Below, piece after piece: positions 32,481-48,352 of a stretch of DNA of 64,000 nucleotides (position 1 is its first letter; the number at the start of each line of letters is the position of its first letter). The stretch is from a bacterium. GTDB taxonomy: Archaea; Thermoproteota; Bathyarchaeia; 40CM-2-53-6. Below the pieces are notes generated by a model. The model was not told where the DNA came from and did no database searches. It was given only the letters and a program-made list of their open reading frames with translations. Position numbers and translations under genes: made by a program. The stretch is taken from positions 10,458 through 74,457 of the forward strand of contig JAJPJY010000066.1 of NCBI GenBank assembly GCA_021323995.1, given 5' to 3'.

Positions 32481-32509
32481 GAGTTTCACACTTCACCGTT
32501 CACATGTAG
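32481..32509 (+). repeat. Candidate attL (left copy of imperfect direct repeat)
   Basis: gagtttcacacttcaccgttcacatgtag. The 18-nt core 32492..32509 matches 48335..48352 at 17/18. Triple TTCAC unit in both copies. Confidence 0.5.
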
Positions 32510-32692
32510 AAAAGAGCTTCCCTTATGCGAGTAACCATCGCAGTGAAAGCAGTCTGGTCAGATCGTCGTCATTTTCCAGTTCTTCCAGTGGAAAACCATG
32601 GCTGTACCCCATCGTTCCAATACCTGAATGCCCGGCTGTTGGTAACACAACACCCGCCCGTCCGGACTTCGTGGTTTTCGTGGAGAACAAGC

Positions 32693-33919
32693 ATGGAGAG
32701 AGATATCTCCGCGAAAGGTTGGGTCAACCAGGCTACAGAAGCGGCTACTCAGACTATCCGTATCCGCGTACTCCGAGTATGGGCTACTGCCAACGGTTGG
32801 CTCAAGATAGACCACCCTTCGAGTGCCGATATCTACATGGCGGCAGAAGAAGGGGTCGATGAGATCAATTCGAACGCTGTAAGTCTCTACGACGCCGCGA
32901 ATCGGATGCTGTCCTCGATGATGAAACGGGGATTAGGAGCATCCAACTCTGCCAGCTACTACCGGGGCAGACTAGCCGAGTTCATGAAATGGGCAAAGCT
33001 CGGTGTGGACGACACAGATTGGGACGTGTCGGTCAAGAAGATACACCGTATCGTCAGGGACGCTGGAAACCTCGACGCCAAGGGCGTAAAGTCGATGATC
33101 ATCGGGGCACGCTCCAAAAAGGGCAAGGCCCTAGTCAGCTTCGTCGCGAATACTGGCTGTCGTCCGAGCGAGGCCCTCCTTACCAAGATTTCTGATCTTG
33201 ACTTGACAAAGACACCAGCGCGTGTCCACTTCAGGGCAGAGATCACCAAGACCAGACGAGATCGATACTCGTTTCTCAGCACAGAGTGTATGAGCTTGTT
33301 GAAGGATTATTGGGGCGACAGAAAGACCGGCTACATCTTCGAGGGTCAGAAAGAGGGAACTCCAACCGACAAGTCGTCCGCTTGGGAGATGCTTCATCGG
33401 ATCATCGAAGAAGCGGGTCTGCTGGGAGAGAAGGGCGAGACTGGCACTTTCGAGATCAAACCGTACACTTTCCGAGCTTTTGCCGAGGGGGTCATGACGA
33501 CCTGTGGTATGCCGGAGAAATGGATCGACTGGTTGGTCGGGCACGGTTCAGGGGTCAAGGAACACTACCGACAGAGCGGAGTGTTCGACCGAGACATCGC
33601 CCCGGCTTGGCAAACAAAATGTAACTCAGCTTTCTGCTTCATGGCTGACACAGCTGAGACAGTCCTGAGTCTCAAGGAAGAATTAACGGAGCTGAAGAAG
33701 GGGATCGAAGTGGACAGGCAGATCATCGAGGAACAGTTTCTCAAACCGGGTATGAACGCCCCGAATCTTGGGGTCAGCACGCCACGTCCGAAGTTTGAGA
33801 CTAAGAAGATCGACAGCTCGAACGAAGAGTCTCTGGAGAAAGCTGTGGCAGAGGGATACGAACCAGTGCCAGGACTGGCGGTCAACGGGCACATCTTCCT
33901 CCGGAGAAAAGTCGCATAG
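32693..33919 (+). CDS. int: Tyrosine recombinase / integrase (start uncertain; ORF open from 32525, alternative ATG at 32837)
   Basis: TGCRPSEAL (box I Arg), KPYTFRAF, WLVGHGSGVKEHY (H..R...Y catalytic tail). Confidence 0.8.
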   Translation: MERDISAKGWVNQATEAATQTIRIRVLRVWATANGWLKIDHPSSADIYMAAEEGVDEINSNAVSLYDAANRMLSSMMKRGLGASNSASYYRGRLAEFMKWAKLGVDDTDWDVSVKKIHRIVRDAGNLDAKGVKSMIIGARSKKGKALVSFVANTGCRPSEALLTKISDLDLTKTPARVHFRAEITKTRRDRYSFLSTECMSLLKDYWGDRKTGYIFEGQKEGTPTDKSSAWEMLHRIIEEAGLLGEKGETGTFEIKPYTFRAFAEGVMTTCGMPEKWIDWLVGHGSGVKEHYRQSGVFDRDIAPAWQTKCNSAFCFMADTAETVLSLKEELTELKKGIEVDRQIIEEQFLKPGMNAPNLGVSTPRPKFETKKIDSSNEESLEKAVAEGYEPVPGLAVNGHIFLRRKVA

Positions 33920-33980
33920 AGGGTTCCTGATTTCTTGACAACTTGTCTTAGCGGAGCGTTCGAATAAGGGAGGTGATCTT

Positions 33981-34382
33981 ATGCAAAGGAAAATCGGACT
34001 AGTCGTTAGTGCGATCATCGTAGTGGCCGCGATCGGAGGAGTCTTCGGCTCTGGAATGCTGAGCCACGCACCACAGACGACTACAACTACCACGCCCAAC
34101 GTGTGCTTACATTGCTACAGTCTATCGCTGGTCAACACAACTTTCCTGAGCAACTCTACAGCGAGACTTTTCTTGAACGCCACAGCCCACCCGTTAACAG
34201 TCTACTCTTGGGAGCTTTACAACAGCACGGGCCTAGTCAGCTACGGCAACGTCAGCATCAGCATCCAACACAACGAAGTCGGTGCTGTCTCAGTATACCC
34301 AATATCCGCACCCGGCGCATACACCGTTGAAGTAACAACCACAGATCAGACCGTGTGGGCGTACACTGTCCATCGGTTGTAG
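33981..34382 (+). CDS. Secreted or membrane-anchored sequon-rich small protein
   Basis: N-terminal TM LVVSAIIVVAAIGGVFG, then a T-rich region with several NxT/S sequons. Confidence 0.4.
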   Translation: MQRKIGLVVSAIIVVAAIGGVFGSGMLSHAPQTTTTTTPNVCLHCYSLSLVNTTFLSNSTARLFLNATAHPLTVYSWELYNSTGLVSYGNVSISIQHNEVGAVSVYPISAPGAYTVEVTTTDQTVWAYTVHRL

Positions 34383-34391
34383 CCGCCTTTC

Positions 34392-34589
34392 TTAGGCTAC
34401 GACTTCTTTCTTTGGCATCGGCCAACCTCGCTGTTCGATGATCCGCTTCGCTTCTTCTGCTATCTCTGGAGTCGCGGCTCGGAGGCCTTTCTGTCCGCAC
34501 TTGCTACACTCAACAAAAGTTATTGGTTCCTTGAAGTCGAAGGTGCCGACAAAGTGGCAGTTGGGGCATTCGATCTTTTCTTGTGACAT
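34392..34589 (-). CDS. Zn-ribbon small protein
   Basis: CPNCHF...CSKCG. Confidence 0.4.
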   Translation of the reverse strand: MSQEKIECPNCHFVGTFDFKEPITFVECSKCGQKGLRAATPEIAEEAKRIIEQRGWPMPKKEVVA

Positions 34590-47189: not shown

Positions 47190-47368
47190 GGGTGTCTTGG
47201 AGTGTTTAGAAACCTCTGATCTTCTCTGTAGCTCTCCAAAGCGGAGATACGTCCTCTTCTATCGCCGGTTTTCTCTCGTCCAATCTTCTCGTTCTGATAA
47301 CGGTCATTACAGCCATACTGATCATCACCGTCCCGATCCTGATTGATAGAAGGAGGCACCGAAGGGAG

Positions 47369-47986
47369 TTGGGCTATCGGATAGTCTCCTATGAGGCGTT
47401 GAGACGAGGAATGTCCGGAGTAGAGGTTACGTTCAATGGCATACCAGTACCTGAACCCCACCTATGCACCTTGAAGATCACGAATAACGGAAGGGTTCCC
47501 ATTCTACCGTCCGATTATACTCGAGTAATCAACGTAAACTTCCTACCATGTTCGCACTCGGCTCACTCACGTGCTCAGCCGAATGTATTGGCATTTGATT
47601 TGGTTGAACAAAGCCCGAAGAACCTTGGTGCGAACGTCAATTTGCTCAACGCGAAACTCTATGTCGAAGCGACTTTGCTCAATCCCTCGAACTCATTTAC
47701 CGTTAGGGTCTTGTTGGATCATGACTTTAATCATGAGAAACTAGACATCGACGCTCGTATCGTAGGGATCGATGAAGTCAAACCCCCTGGAGAGCCGTGG
47801 CCAAACTCTTGGTGGGTTCAAGGTTTCATGCTGATCGGTTCGATGATTTTGTTTGTCGGTGTCCTTGCCTATTACGTGAATGCCCCTAGCTTGAGTCTTC
47901 TTAGCGCAATTGTTCTCTTCTCATCGATAGCGGCCTCGATTACTTACCTGACCGGTACATCAAAGAAACGAGTTCGGAGAGGCTAA
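47369..47986 (+). CDS. Membrane protein (C-terminal TM helices). Frame is open upstream and encodes an N-terminal TM helix, but lacks ATG/GTG/TTG.
   Basis: Upstream in-frame sequence encodes LLVLITVITAILIITVPILIDRRRHRRE before the ORF-track TTG. C-terminal helices FMLIGSMILFVGVLAYY and LLSAIVLFSSIAASITYL. Confidence 0.35.
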   Translation: MGYRIVSYEALRRGMSGVEVTFNGIPVPEPHLCTLKITNNGRVPILPSDYTRVINVNFLPCSHSAHSRAQPNVLAFDLVEQSPKNLGANVNLLNAKLYVEATLLNPSNSFTVRVLLDHDFNHEKLDIDARIVGIDEVKPPGEPWPNSWWVQGFMLIGSMILFVGVLAYYVNAPSLSLLSAIVLFSSIAASITYLTGTSKKRVRRG

Positions 47987-48074
47987 GACTCCCTCTCAAC
48001 CGTTTCCCAATTAAGGCACAATCGCGTAACACAACACCCGCCCCGAGAGCTATGCCCGTTTTTCCTGAAGACCT

Positions 48075-48299
48075 ATGCCCAAAGAACCACGCGGTCATAT
48101 GGGAAGCGAGCCACAGAAGGAAGTAGACAAGGCGTACATCGAGGAGAGCCTCTACAACAAAGTTCTCCGAGTTCTCCAGAAAGGCGACTGGAACGTACAC
48201 AATCCGGCCGGTCAGTCAGAGCTTGCTCGGGCAATTGCCCGGAAACTGGCCGACTCTATCCTTGACGAAGAGTTCGCGGCCTTGTCCAAGAAATCCTAA
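48075..48299 (+). CDS. Small hypothetical protein
   Basis: ATG ORF of 74 aa just inside the right repeat. Confidence 0.3.
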   Translation: MPKEPRGHMGSEPQKEVDKAYIEESLYNKVLRVLQKGDWNVHNPAGQSELARAIARKLADSILDEEFAALSKKS

Positions 48300-48320
48300 A
48301 CTCGGTGTCTTTTCGGCACC

Positions 48321-48352
48321 GAGACCCTTCACCTTTCACCCTTCACATGTAG
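48321..48352 (+). repeat. Candidate attR (right copy of imperfect direct repeat)
   Basis: gagacccttcacctttcacccttcacatgtag. The 18-nt core ttcacccttcacatgtag matches 32492..32509 at 17/18. Confidence 0.5.

Follow-up and report, generated by a model that had tools for sequence, protein, structure and literature searches.

The window, a 64,000-nt stretch of the chromosome of an uncultured soil Bathyarchaeia archaeon, carries a site-specifically integrated mobile element in its 32–48 kb interval. The flanks hold housekeeping genes, as the first-pass annotation had described (orc1, pyrI, and the PiT transporter gene, to which an M50 peptidase gene can be added), and the ORFs of the interval are mostly ORFans, in keeping with the many hypotheticals listed there. 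Interval and flanks show no contrast in G+C content.

Genes of the integrated interval

The left end of the element is occupied by a 408-aa tyrosine integrase gene (int) on the plus strand (32693..33919), with the att site outside the gene. Its intactness, already recognised from the sequence, was upheld by an unbroken ORF with a PF00589 domain (E 5.9e-13) and matches to PHROG integrases. The called gene begins at its real start, 32693; a longer 464-aa ORF from 32525, not recognised as spurious before, is an artefact of ORF calling whose start falls in host DNA. Read by eye, the translation contains the catalytic signature R...YxxR...Y (GCRPSE, KPYTFRAF, GHG, and EHY; consensus in PMC8371274), and database matches comprise the exact 408-aa cluster P0018 and relatives at 73%–78% identity. 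The proposed pNOB8-type assignment holds only in functional terms, given the intact gene and the R..YxxR..Y signature. For the sequence family, which calls for ≥30% identity across ≥60% of a member's length (PMC8371274), the best NCBIfam match was XerA with 50 bits against a cutoff of 220. Neither PLSDB nor the GenBank phages yielded a match to an archaeal plasmid or virus integrase. Classical lambda/pNOB8-type archaeal elements, including SNJ2 and those of Thaumarchaeota (PMC8371274), share the intact integrase gene, a short att repeat outside it, and R..YxxR..Y, whereas the present integrase is far from the characterised archaeal families and its target is the dyad of an ORB-like site (origin recognition box, or Orc1/Cdc6 box). 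The integrase does not behave like the suicidal SSV type of spindle-shaped viruses, in which attP lies inside int and integration splits the gene: here int is intact and the core lies upstream of it.

Beside int and on the same strand lies a gene for a 133-aa protein (33981..34382) whose translation combines a membrane anchor at its N-terminus with a Thr-rich linker and numerous N-x-S/T sites; a gene of 127–133 aa is found in this position and orientation in two relatives (L085 and L086). The right end of the element is also encoded on the plus strand. There, a 359-aa protein (46110..47189) that L093 also has carries a C-terminal TIR effector domain of the CAP12/Pycsar type (PF10137, E 9.6e-15); PADLOC weakly assigned it to TIR effector/PDC-S35, and it is probably defence or superinfection-exclusion cargo. 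The TIR gene is adjoined by one for a 205-aa protein with C-terminal transmembrane helices (47369..47986; phrog_29378, E 1.5e-4), followed at the very end by a 74-aa gene (48075..48299) with a hairpin after it (approximately 48300–48326), whose product is possibly a small regulator. Together, the end genes for the integrase, membrane glycoprotein, TIR protein, and 74-aa protein would form a lysogeny and cargo set and may be expressed in the lysogen. An exact 18-nt repeat missed by the first-pass annotation, GTAACACAACACCCGCCC, occurs 34 nt upstream of the int ATG (32642..32659, plus strand) and 32 nt upstream of the 74-aa gene (48026..48043, plus strand). Throughout the family, a variant of it is kept upstream of int, and the motif may represent a promoter or operator, or an arm site of the integrase.

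The genes between these ends lie on the minus strand. A beta-rich 331-aa protein (34592..35587) varies across the family; its low-confidence model is a beta-sandwich resembling phage baseplate and spike proteins, and it is tentatively regarded as jelly-roll or receptor-binding-like. A 190-aa protein with one CxxC motif (37054..37626) has no Pfam, PHROG, or NCBIfam match. The 119-aa ORF at 38130..38489 is conserved in three relatives (L086, L097, and L100), and is more likely to be the real gene than the ORFs that overlap it. Just upstream of the gene for a 697-aa protein discussed below lie those for two small zinc-ribbon proteins of 94 and 85 aa (41316..41842), conserved in several relatives. 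Previously, at least eight CxxC zinc-ribbon proteins had been counted in the interval; we found paired CxxC motifs in five small ORFs, and only a single CxxC in several more. Three further genes are family-conserved. The first, placed in the family by synteny, encodes a 360-aa protein (41843..42925) with six proteins among 1.84 billion representatives, its own representative counted, and a composition that suggests a mostly disordered centre. The second product (173 aa, 43200..43721) is 60% identical in L093, and the third (184 aa, 44157..44711), which has no family match, could possibly be a PD-(D/E)xK nuclease, as judged by eye from a D...ECK motif.

Empty sites and the position of the junctions

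In at least 14 related Bathyarchaeia genomes (loci L004, L005, L007–L009, L012–L014, L019, L020, L059, L062, L065, and L079), the wHTH gene flanking the element directly adjoins the 867-aa gene on its other side, with a gap of approximately 200–350 bp. Relatives with an empty site, predicted when the interval was first interpreted as an integrated element, thus exist. Their intergenic DNA aligns end to end with the sequence left of the core at attL, the core, and the sequence right of it at attR, which together reconstruct attB. This attB is a conserved intergenic module between the wHTH regulator gene and the 867-aa surface-protein gene, with orc1 4.3 kb upstream, and both flanking genes are left undisrupted by the insertion.

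The direct repeat that marks both junctions is the exact 12-mer TTCCAGTGGAAA, located at 32583..32594 (attL core) and 48425..48436 (attR core), both on the plus strand. Its position is fixed by L112 and L111, two more elements that occupy this site in other host backgrounds and whose integrases are 78% and 73% identical to that of the window. Compared with L112, the window is conserved at 70% in the spacer left of the core, 12/12 in the core, and 89% from the core to int. From the core to the int start there are 98 nt, the core being upstream, and int is not split by the integration. Empty sites, L111, and L112 place the boundaries at approximately 32583/32595 to 48424/48436 instead of 32481–48352 as first proposed, and the junction at the 12-mer therefore gives an element length of approximately 15,842 bp. 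Cores of 8–13 bp and intergenic att sites have already been reported for archaeal elements (PMC8371274). In JGI metagenome contigs, a degenerate 28-mer over the attP, attB, attL, and attR junctions gave 0 matches; as even attL and attR were absent from them, the search is uninformative about excision or a circular form. Overall, we assign a probability of about 85% to an integrated element that crossed over at the ORB dyad and belongs to a family of 14.9–15.8-kb elements.

The 12-mer, which escaped the first-pass annotation, follows the two copies of another direct repeat on their right, at distances of 74 and 73 nt, and it was these copies (32481–32509 and 48321–48352) that had been taken for attL and attR. 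As a repeat, the pair is real: a repeat search aligned 32485–32509 with 48328–48352 over 25 nt at 88% identity, each copy with the three TTCAC units described before, and TTCACCSTTCACATGTAG, with up to three mismatches allowed, matches only 32492–32509 and 48335–48352 in the window, whereas two matches were obtained in 0/100 shuffles. Although these copies are unique in the window, bracket foreign genes, and are spaced by 15,843 bp, nearly the distance between the true cores, an element spanning exactly 32481–48352 is refuted by the empty sites and the L111 and L112 junctions. Every empty site shows the order TTCAC block, AAAAGAGCTTCCC, 71–73-nt spacer, and ORB seen on the left side of the window, which identifies the 73 nt after the left copy as host DNA; beyond the right copy, the sequence does not match any empty site until the ORB, and in L112 and L111 the switch between host and element occurs at the ORB.

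The ORB-like target and the TTCAC copy

The 12-mer is the dyad of a full ORB-like element, which at attR consists of dyad and G-string, TTCCAGTGGAAACAGAGGGGT (48425..48445, plus strand), with host DNA from 48437 onward. Within the window, TTCCAGNGGAAANNNNGGGGT matches only at 48425 on the plus strand and at 26633–26653 on the minus strand, the latter upstream of orc1, with 0 matches expected. In relatives, the pattern is likewise found beside orc1 and at the empty site; many Bathyarchaeia, and also Acidianus, carry it a short way upstream of orc1. It also matches the Pyrococcus mini-ORB, TTCCAGTGGAACT (PMC1904270). With its TTCC-N-GGAAA dyad and downstream G-string, the target has the sequence of the boxes next to orc1 and, like the ORBs in the oriC of Pyrococcus, Sulfolobus, and Aeropyrum, a TTCC...GGAAA dyad followed by a G-string (PMC1904270, PMC12141716). 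In contrast to these origins (PMC1904270, PMC12141716), attB has a lone full box among TTCAC/GTGAA blocks, including a host-conserved palindrome TTCAC-N5-GTGAA downstream of the ORB (48457..48471, plus strand) that is seen in the empty sites. A functional origin would have inverted ORBs on either side of an AT-rich unwinding element; with one full box, approximately 50% G+C, and no such element, attB need not be an origin, although Orc1 may bind to it. We found no report of an ORB as an integration target in the review of archaeal integration (PMC8371274), and no paper with both "origin recognition box" and "attB" in the literature searched.

The left TTCAC block (TTCACx3-ATGTAG, 32485..32509, plus strand) is part of the native chromosome. 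It sits just upstream of the wHTH gene (32051–32461, minus strand), is present in 10/10 aligned empty sites, and is 24/25 identical in L112. The host spacer between block and dyad (32510..32582) contains the conserved sub-blocks AAAAGAGCTTCCC, GTGAA, and TTTCCA, and 40–53 of its 73 positions are identical to empty-site spacers, compared to 34–39 of 73 for the spacer at the right copy. The right block (48328..48352, plus strand) is element DNA that mimics the conserved host block at native spacing: it shares 22/25 positions with the present host block, 11 nt of them in an unbroken run, and is followed by a 72-nt spacer (48353–48424; host spacers, 71–73 nt). This spacer is unlike those of the hosts and lacks the AAAAG.GCT, GTGAA, and TTCCA sub-blocks that are invariant in all sampled hosts.

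In the proposed mechanism, the intact-int lambda/pNOB8-style tyrosine integrase would have recombined attP of the element with the chromosomal attB, the 12-bp dyad being the shared core. After integration, attL consists of the host TTCAC block, host spacer, and dyad, and attR of the element's TTCAC block, 72-nt spacer, and dyad followed by the host G-string and palindrome, so that a complete host-like module would be rebuilt at attR, as tRNA-targeting elements restore the tRNA. The element-borne block might instead be a neutral relic of an aberrant, lambda gal/bio-like excision in an earlier host that took approximately 105 bp left of the core. Such a capture would leave the host-left segment exactly where it is seen, with the element's right end on one side and the core on the other, at native spacing (72 vs. 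71–73 nt), and the tRNA-targeting relatives have no comparable arm similarity. Yet, next to a block that is still 22/25 identical, the spacer is down to background identity and has lost the host-invariant sub-blocks, which argues for selection on the block and its spacing rather than neutral decay and makes a relic unlikely. We infer a role for the TTCAC mimic. Neither an ORB nor arm mimicry is found in the tRNA-targeting relatives; therefore, the ORB and the TTCAC copy are specific to the present sub-lineage.

Family and lifestyle of the element

The element belongs to a family of rare integrated elements of 14.9–15.8 kb with conserved gene order. Four distinct relatives (five loci examined) are integrated at tRNA 3' ends, where 15–19-bp direct repeats overlapping the tRNA bound elements of 14.9–15.7 kb. 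Even members whose integrases are only 26%–35% identical keep the uniform size and gene order. No close relative of the family was found in IMG/VR or among the GenBank phages. No described type fits, in agreement with the initial suspicion of a possibly new element type, and the family is undescribed.

The hallmark of the family is a 697-aa protein (39238..41331, minus strand) with a prohead protease domain (residues ~12–160), a HAD-like domain (~190–300), and a disordered tail that includes two long helices. The protease matches Peptidase_S78 (22.4 bits, cutoff 21) and PHROGs 617, 80, and 3244 (E 5e-8); the protein also matches NCBIfam TIGR01543 (E 1e-8, below that family's own cutoff), and Foldseek on the AF2 model returned T4 gp21 and herpesvirus proteases as well as HAD phosphatases. 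An HK97/T4-type capsid-maturation protease domain, and with it a capsid-related gene not noted before, is thus present in the element, although the AF2 model shows no HK97 capsid fold and its C-terminal region is disordered. Homologues number 8 among 5.8 billion proteins, and the motifs DHxH and GxSIGxD are invariant in all seven aligned proteins (that of the window and six homologues). Phage P2 gpO and lambda gpC/Nu3 likewise join, within a single polypeptide, an N-terminal capsid protease to a scaffold-like C-terminal region that is helical or disordered, and their genes adjoin the major capsid protein (MCP) gene; the 697-aa protein has a similar layout, but here no MCP gene is adjacent. We know of no counterpart, in protease-scaffold fusions, to the HAD-like domain (DxNGT motif) inserted here.

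As the first-pass annotation had concluded, Pfam, PHROG, and NCBIfam searches of the element ORFs recognised no MCP, terminase large subunit, portal, or replication gene, nor a packaging ATPase. No uncharacterised ORF exceeds 360 aa, and the models of the 697-aa C-terminal region (disordered) and the 331-aa protein (beta-sandwich) do not reveal an MCP either. An HK97-type capsid would be either self-encoded and unrecognisable or supplied by a helper tailed virus, and because of the ORF sizes the helper is the more likely source.

That the element is a temperate virus, complete and autonomous, that founds a new family, with capsid, portal, and packaging enzyme hidden among very divergent or unusual ORFans, is possible but doubtful. 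Such a virus would fit the uniform 14.9–15.8 kb and conserved gene order despite 26%–35% integrase identity, the conserved capsid protease, and the likeness of the 331-aa beta-sandwich to baseplate and spike proteins, and structural proteins of archaeal viruses often cannot be recognised by sequence. However, to our knowledge, the gp21/herpesvirus-type protease fold occurs only in viruses whose capsids have the HK97 fold; these require an MCP of at least approximately 250 aa, a portal, and a terminase ATPase, whereas the ORFs above 210 aa are only int, the protease fusion with its disordered C-terminal part, the TIR protein, the 331-aa beta-sandwich, and the 360-aa low-complexity protein. As a control, Pfam readily detects the MCP beside the nearest protease relative in IMG/VR; the control tailed virus L089 has the gene order protease, MCP, tail tube.

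Rather improbable is an integrated plasmid or cryptic element that forms no particle, in which the protease-like protein is co-opted or a remnant. Although the missing capsid, packaging, and tail genes, the many small zinc-ribbon or DNA-binding-like ORFs, and the defence-type cargo would suit it, there is no replication, partition, conjugation, or other ATPase gene either, and the DHxH and GxSIGxD motifs invariant in seven aligned proteins, together with the retained synteny of the protease gene, indicate purifying selection on a morphogenetic function.

Among known systems, archaeal Caudoviricetes proviruses such as "Fuxiviridae" and "Kunpengviridae" of Bathyarchaeia (PMC10848311) share the host class, an integrase, and a protease of the HK97/T4 gp21/herpesvirus fold. 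In contrast to them (PMC10848311), the element has only 15.8 kb and no HK97 MCP, portal, terminase, or tail genes, and in its protease protein a HAD-like domain and a long disordered tail are fused on. The element resembles P4-like and PICI-like satellites as an integrase-bearing island of approximately 10–18 kb that holds part of a capsid-assembly module but lacks MCP, portal, and tail genes. Such satellites have their own replication module (primase or Rep) and are induced and packaged with a helper, whereas no replication/primase module or small terminase was recognised in the element. P4 and the SaPI/PICI are themselves integrase-bearing islands of approximately 15 kb with a partial morphogenetic module (scaffold-like or capsid-remodelling) and defence-type cargo, and we know of no described satellite of an archaeal head-tailed virus. 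To date, the satellites known from archaea comprise pSSVx, pSSVi, and the SRCEs of spindle-shaped viruses (bioRxiv 10.1101/2025.02.15.638363).

The conserved module of a capsid protease and a scaffold-like disordered tail points to a virus-like lifestyle relying on an HK97-type capsid, in which the element would form virions or depend on a helper. Soil Bathyarchaeia thus probably harbour, in this element, a virus or virus satellite of a new kind.

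Empty sites and the crossover point

The first-pass annotation had read the interval 32481-48352 as an integrated element, and related genomes show it to be an insertion. Comparing the window proteins by tblastn with orc1-centred loci of related genomes, we found a conserved order of orc1, Endo_dU, two small genes, Mrr, o160, a TrmB-like gene, and wHTH136 (a 136-aa wHTH gene, 32051-32461(-) in the window). In at least 14 related loci (L004, L005, L007-L009, L012-L014, L019, L020, L059, L062, L065, and L079), wHTH136 directly adjoins the gene of an 867-aa protein across a gap of ~200-350 bp, with M50 and PiT genes beyond it wherever the contig extends far enough, and these empty-site loci contain no tblastn match to the element proteins. 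The called genes of the window also bear out the flanks with orc1, pyrI, and PiT described earlier, with PyrI, Orc1/Cdc6, an Endo_dU nuclease, an Mrr-like nuclease, and two wHTH regulators on the left and the 867-aa protein, an M50 peptidase, and PiT on the right. The window is part of a 75.7-kb ENA metagenome contig (ERZ27279682 k141_1062683), and the element also occurs in samples JGI 3300027842 and SRR5579864. The window Orc1 is 83-91% identical to that of soil Bathyarchaeia MAGs, and no contrast in G+C content or skew was found between the interval and its flanks. The Mrr-like restriction endonuclease gene (29375-30493(-)), located between orc1 and the insertion site, keeps its synteny in most closer relatives and thus belongs to the host core neighborhood and not to a mobile element. 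Two related contigs, L004 (DASPWZ010000012.1) and L039 (DATIXS010000275.1), come from MAGs labelled Dormiibacterota and Acidoferrum, respectively, yet contain a Bathyarchaeia-type orc1 (in L004 also the genes downstream of it), and are probably binning contaminants.

The imperfect TTCAC direct repeats, previously proposed to flank the integrated element, are both present at the reported positions. Allowing up to three mismatches, TTCACCSTTCACATGTAG matches only 32492-32509 and 48335-48352 in the window, with two matches in 0 of 100 shuffles, and a repeat search found the similarity to span 25 nt (88% identity). When k-mers of the two junction regions were compared, a second repeat emerged, the exact 12-mer TTCCAGTGGAAA; its copies at 32583 and 48425 lie 74 nt rightward of the left TTCAC copy and 73 nt rightward of the right one, respectively. 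All empty sites share one layout: TTCAC-N2-TTC(A/G)C-N2-TTCAC(A/G)TGTAG, followed by AAAAG(A)GCT, a spacer with GTGAA and TTCCA, (T/C)TCCAGTGGAAA(C/T)-N3-GGGGT, and TTCAC-N5-GTGAAGC. On the left side of the window, the sequence from the TTCAC copy through the 12-mer matches this host layout, including AAAAGAGCTTCCCTT and TTTCCAGTTC, and switches past the 12-mer to element DNA (ACCATGGCTG…, running into int). On the right side, a 72-nt spacer without the host sub-blocks comes after the TTCAC copy, and host sequence (CAGAGGGGT…TTCACTGGTAGTGAAGCC) resumes past the 12-mer. The left spacer is identical to the empty-site spacers at 40-53 of 73 positions, compared to 34-39 of 73, about background, for the element-borne spacer. 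An attB reconstructed by joining 32462-32594 to 48437-48490 can be aligned over its full length with ten empty sites.

Two different host backgrounds have further integrases (P0019 and P0020), 78% and 73% identical to that of the window, at this locus. In L112, one of these two cases, a wHTH orthologue and the TTCAC block precede a different host spacer (70% identical to that of the window), which is followed by the 12-mer and then ACCATGGCTAAACCCCATCGTTCCAATACC…, 89% identical to the window as far as the int ATG; in the other, L111, an L005-like host spacer leads into TTCCAGTGGGAAAACC…CCCCATCGTTCCAATACC. The empty-site and three-element comparison rules out the TTCAC repeat as the att core and identifies the 12-mer (32583-32594 at attL, 48425-48436 at attR) as the core, giving an element of 15,842 bp with one core copy counted. 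The attP and attB junctions would read …GAAATGCGTGTTTCCAGTGGAAAACCATGGCTG… and …TTTCCAGTTCTTCCAGTGGAAACAGAGGGGT…, respectively; a search of JGI metagenome contigs gave 0 matches to them, and even attL and attR had no match there. A tRNA gene as the target of the window element was ruled out, as the sole tRNA of the window (Pro, 22700) lies 10 kb from it. We also rejected the right-hand region as a remnant of the 5' end of a second integrase, as there is no similarity at the protein level and the common 12-mer is the ORB (origin recognition box, bound by Orc1/Cdc6).

An ORB-like target and an element-borne host block

The pattern TTCCAGNGGAAANNNNGGGGT occurs twice in the 64 kb, where 0 occurrences are expected: at 26633-26653(-) in the pyrI-orc1 intergenic region and at 48425-48445(+) at attR. 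Among the loci compared, many Bathyarchaeia and Acidianus have the ORB pattern no more than ~360 nt upstream of orc1, and the soil clade has it at the empty site as well. The attB pattern agrees with the Pyrococcus mini-ORB TTCCAGTGGAACT, with its core TTCC and GAA (PMC1904270). Since attB has a single full box and no AT-rich stretch, we call the target ORB-like and not an origin. The pyrI-orc1 intergenic region (26500-26936) itself contains inverted ORB-like boxes (26633-26653(-) and ~26812-26832(+)) and a mini-ORB (26884-26896), with the boxes flanking a less G+C-rich stretch, and looks like the chromosomal oriC. We found no mention of an ORB as integration target in a review of archaeal integrases (PMC8371274), a literature search returned no paper with both "origin recognition box" and "attB", and the AGV1 preprint (an ORB plus an integrase) has no bearing on ORB targeting.

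In the host, motifs of the TTCACnnGTAG type flank the ORB on both sides (32485-32509, 48457-48471, and at the empty sites), and a spacer of 71-73 nt separates the TTCAC block from the ORB across two host groups, whose Orc1 proteins are ~83% and ~87-91% identical to that of the window. The gene for the 136-aa wHTH protein (BlaI/CopY-like) starts ~20 nt from the TTCAC block, which may therefore be its operator. The lack of an Rfam match and of covariation in the consensus fold speaks against a structured RNA at attB, and the conserved blocks are more likely protein-binding DNA.

The right-hand repeat of the first-pass annotation is indeed present at 48328-48352, but it is carried by the element. 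It is 22/25 identical to the host TTCACx3-ATGTAG block and lies 72 nt from the core, compared to 71-73 nt in the hosts, with a spacer unrelated to host spacers, so that attR has a complete host-like module after integration. The block may be a case of functional mimicry, rebuilding the host module or binding a host factor that aids synapsis or target choice, and the preservation of block and spacing next to a randomized spacer favors selection on the block. A relic of aberrant excision is a second explanation that fits. As the oriC mini-ORB (26884-26896) matches 11/12 positions of the att 12-mer, yet is not used as a target, target choice may need the help of a host factor. No arm similarity past the cores was found in the tRNA-targeting relatives. 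Just before the element-borne block, directly after the stop codon of a 74-aa gene, a hairpin (CTCGGTG…CACCGAG, 48300-48326) looks like a terminator.

A PF00589 domain confirms the tyrosine integrase in the interval. The 464-aa ORF from 32525 begins in host DNA, and int proper is a 408-aa gene (32693-33919). Its previous classification as a pNOB8-type, intact integrase stands as far as function is concerned: an R…YxxR…Y pattern, attributed to pNOB8-type enzymes (PMC8371274), was read by eye, and the enzyme is of the classical, non-suicidal type, but its sequence is an outlier. Cores of 8-13 bp and intergenic targets were previously known for archaeal att sites (PMC8371274). The ATGs of int and the 74-aa gene are each preceded, at a distance of ~32-34 nt, by an exact 18-nt repeat, GTAACACAACACCCGCCC (32642-32659 and 48026-48043); all family members have a variant of it ahead of int, and the variant recurs within the related contig L087. 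A 17-nt T-rich motif (46025-46041 and 48057-48073) is common to the upstream regions of the TIR and 74-aa genes. Both motifs may serve the plus-strand (lysogeny) genes as common promoter or operator elements, or be arm sites of the integrase.

A family of integrative elements with a capsid protease fusion

The site-specifically integrated element belongs to an undescribed family. Its 697-aa protease fusion (39238-41331(-)) has eight homologues among 5.8 billion proteins, one of which is its own cluster and differs in the called start only. The contigs of these homologues share a gene order of a 160-190-aa gene, a 170-250-aa gene, a 327-360-aa gene, a ~90-aa zinc ribbon (in most members), and the protease fusion, followed by variable small genes, in L085 and L086 a ~130-aa membrane protein, and a terminal int. 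In L085, L086/L097, L087, and L093, a tRNA 3' end lies just beyond int; Rfam confirms the tRNA in L087 only, and the others were read from the 3' ends of acceptor and T-arm. ARAGORN missed all of these target tRNAs because they contain long introns. Direct repeats of 15-19 bp overlapping the tRNA 3' ends recur 14.9-15.7 kb away, indicating a family of integrative elements of uniform size. The sub-lineage of the window, together with L111 and L112, appears to have switched from tRNA genes to the ORB site. No ORB was found in the tRNA-targeting relatives, making an element-borne ORB unlikely as a family-wide replication origin. IMG/VR searches for close relatives with the integrase, the 697-aa protein, and its alignment returned only distant ordinary phage proteases, and GenBank phages gave a single match, a Marinomonas phage prohead protease (35%).

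The N-terminal region of the 697-aa protein matches Peptidase_S78 (22.4 bits, cutoff 21), PHROGs of head-maturation proteases and protease-MCP fusions (E 5e-8 to 3e-7), and, below its cutoff, TIGR01543 proheadase_HK97 (E 1e-8), and the motifs DHxH and GxSIGxD are invariant in the seven proteins aligned, that of the window and six homologues. Its AF2 model has two confident domains (residues 12-155 and 190-300), which Foldseek matched to the T4 gp21 capsid-assembly protease (E 2.4e-4, probability 1.0) and herpesvirus assemblins, and to HAD phosphatases, respectively; a search against PDB sequences yielded nothing useful. Residues 300-693 are disordered except for two long helices, so that no capsid protein is hidden in the C-terminal part. 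This tail contains the conserved motifs KIAAEPGKSGSSEVFRTD and MRPGGAQG. The HAD-like domain (residues ~190-300), located between the capsid protease and the disordered tail, has DxNGT in place of DxDGT and is found in most family members, but is missing from the homologues P0006 and P0007. A conserved KIAAEPGxSGSSEVFRTD motif precedes this domain in P0002 and P0005 instead of following it.

Among the other proteins, the compositionally disordered 360-aa protein belongs to a group of six in 1.84 billion representatives (its own representative counted), a 359-aa protein has a CAP12/Pycsar-type TIR domain, and five small ORFs have paired CxxC motifs. Other ORFs conserved in the family, besides that of the 360-aa protein, encode 190, 184, 173, 119, and 88 aa. 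The 331-aa protein was rejected as an MCP, its poor model being a beta-sandwich and not an HK97 fold. As reported before, no replication protein, MCP, portal, or terminase was found; Pfam, PHROGs, NCBIfam, and PADLOC revealed none of these and also no ATPase. The nearest IMG/VR relative of the protease (L089), used as a control, has the usual order of protease, Phage_capsid (E 2.5e-35), and tail tube.

Virus or satellite

A capsid protease with a scaffold-like tail, and no ORF plausible as an HK97 capsid, portal, or terminase, fit a satellite-like element dependent on a helper tailed virus. The conserved protease and its tail are likewise compatible with an autonomous virus whose structural genes are unrecognizable, and the basis of the satellite reading is absence of evidence. 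As the only described archaeal satellites are pSSVx, pSSVi, and SRCEs, all tied to spindle-shaped viruses (bioRxiv 10.1101/2025.02.15.638363), a satellite of this kind would be new. At its most specific, with a probability of roughly one in five, the family would comprise the first satellite-like parasites to exploit head-tailed viruses of archaea: its ~15-kb islands would encode no more than a capsid protease-scaffold fusion and accessory proteins, which would hijack or resize the HK97-type capsid of a helper. In the sub-lineage of the window, the target of the integrase would then have changed from tRNA genes to an Orc1 box, and the attP arm would mimic a protein-binding block of the host, thereby attracting a host factor for synapsis or restoring the host module.

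Bathyarchaeia have few known mobile elements, and in the present soil lineage none resembles the window element, whose family is invisible to IMG/VR and annotated phage collections. The protease is a hallmark of tailed viruses, yet the family has none of their other hallmark genes, and must therefore represent either a novel type of virion or the first counterpart in archaea of satellites that hijack capsids. The element targets the dyad of an Orc1 box, within an intergenic module near orc1 that is deeply conserved, a type of site of which we found no description. Its own copy of a host protein-binding block provides a case in which att-arm mimicry outside tRNA genes can be tested. Finally, the integrase and its 12-bp target may become a genetic tool for a lineage without any.
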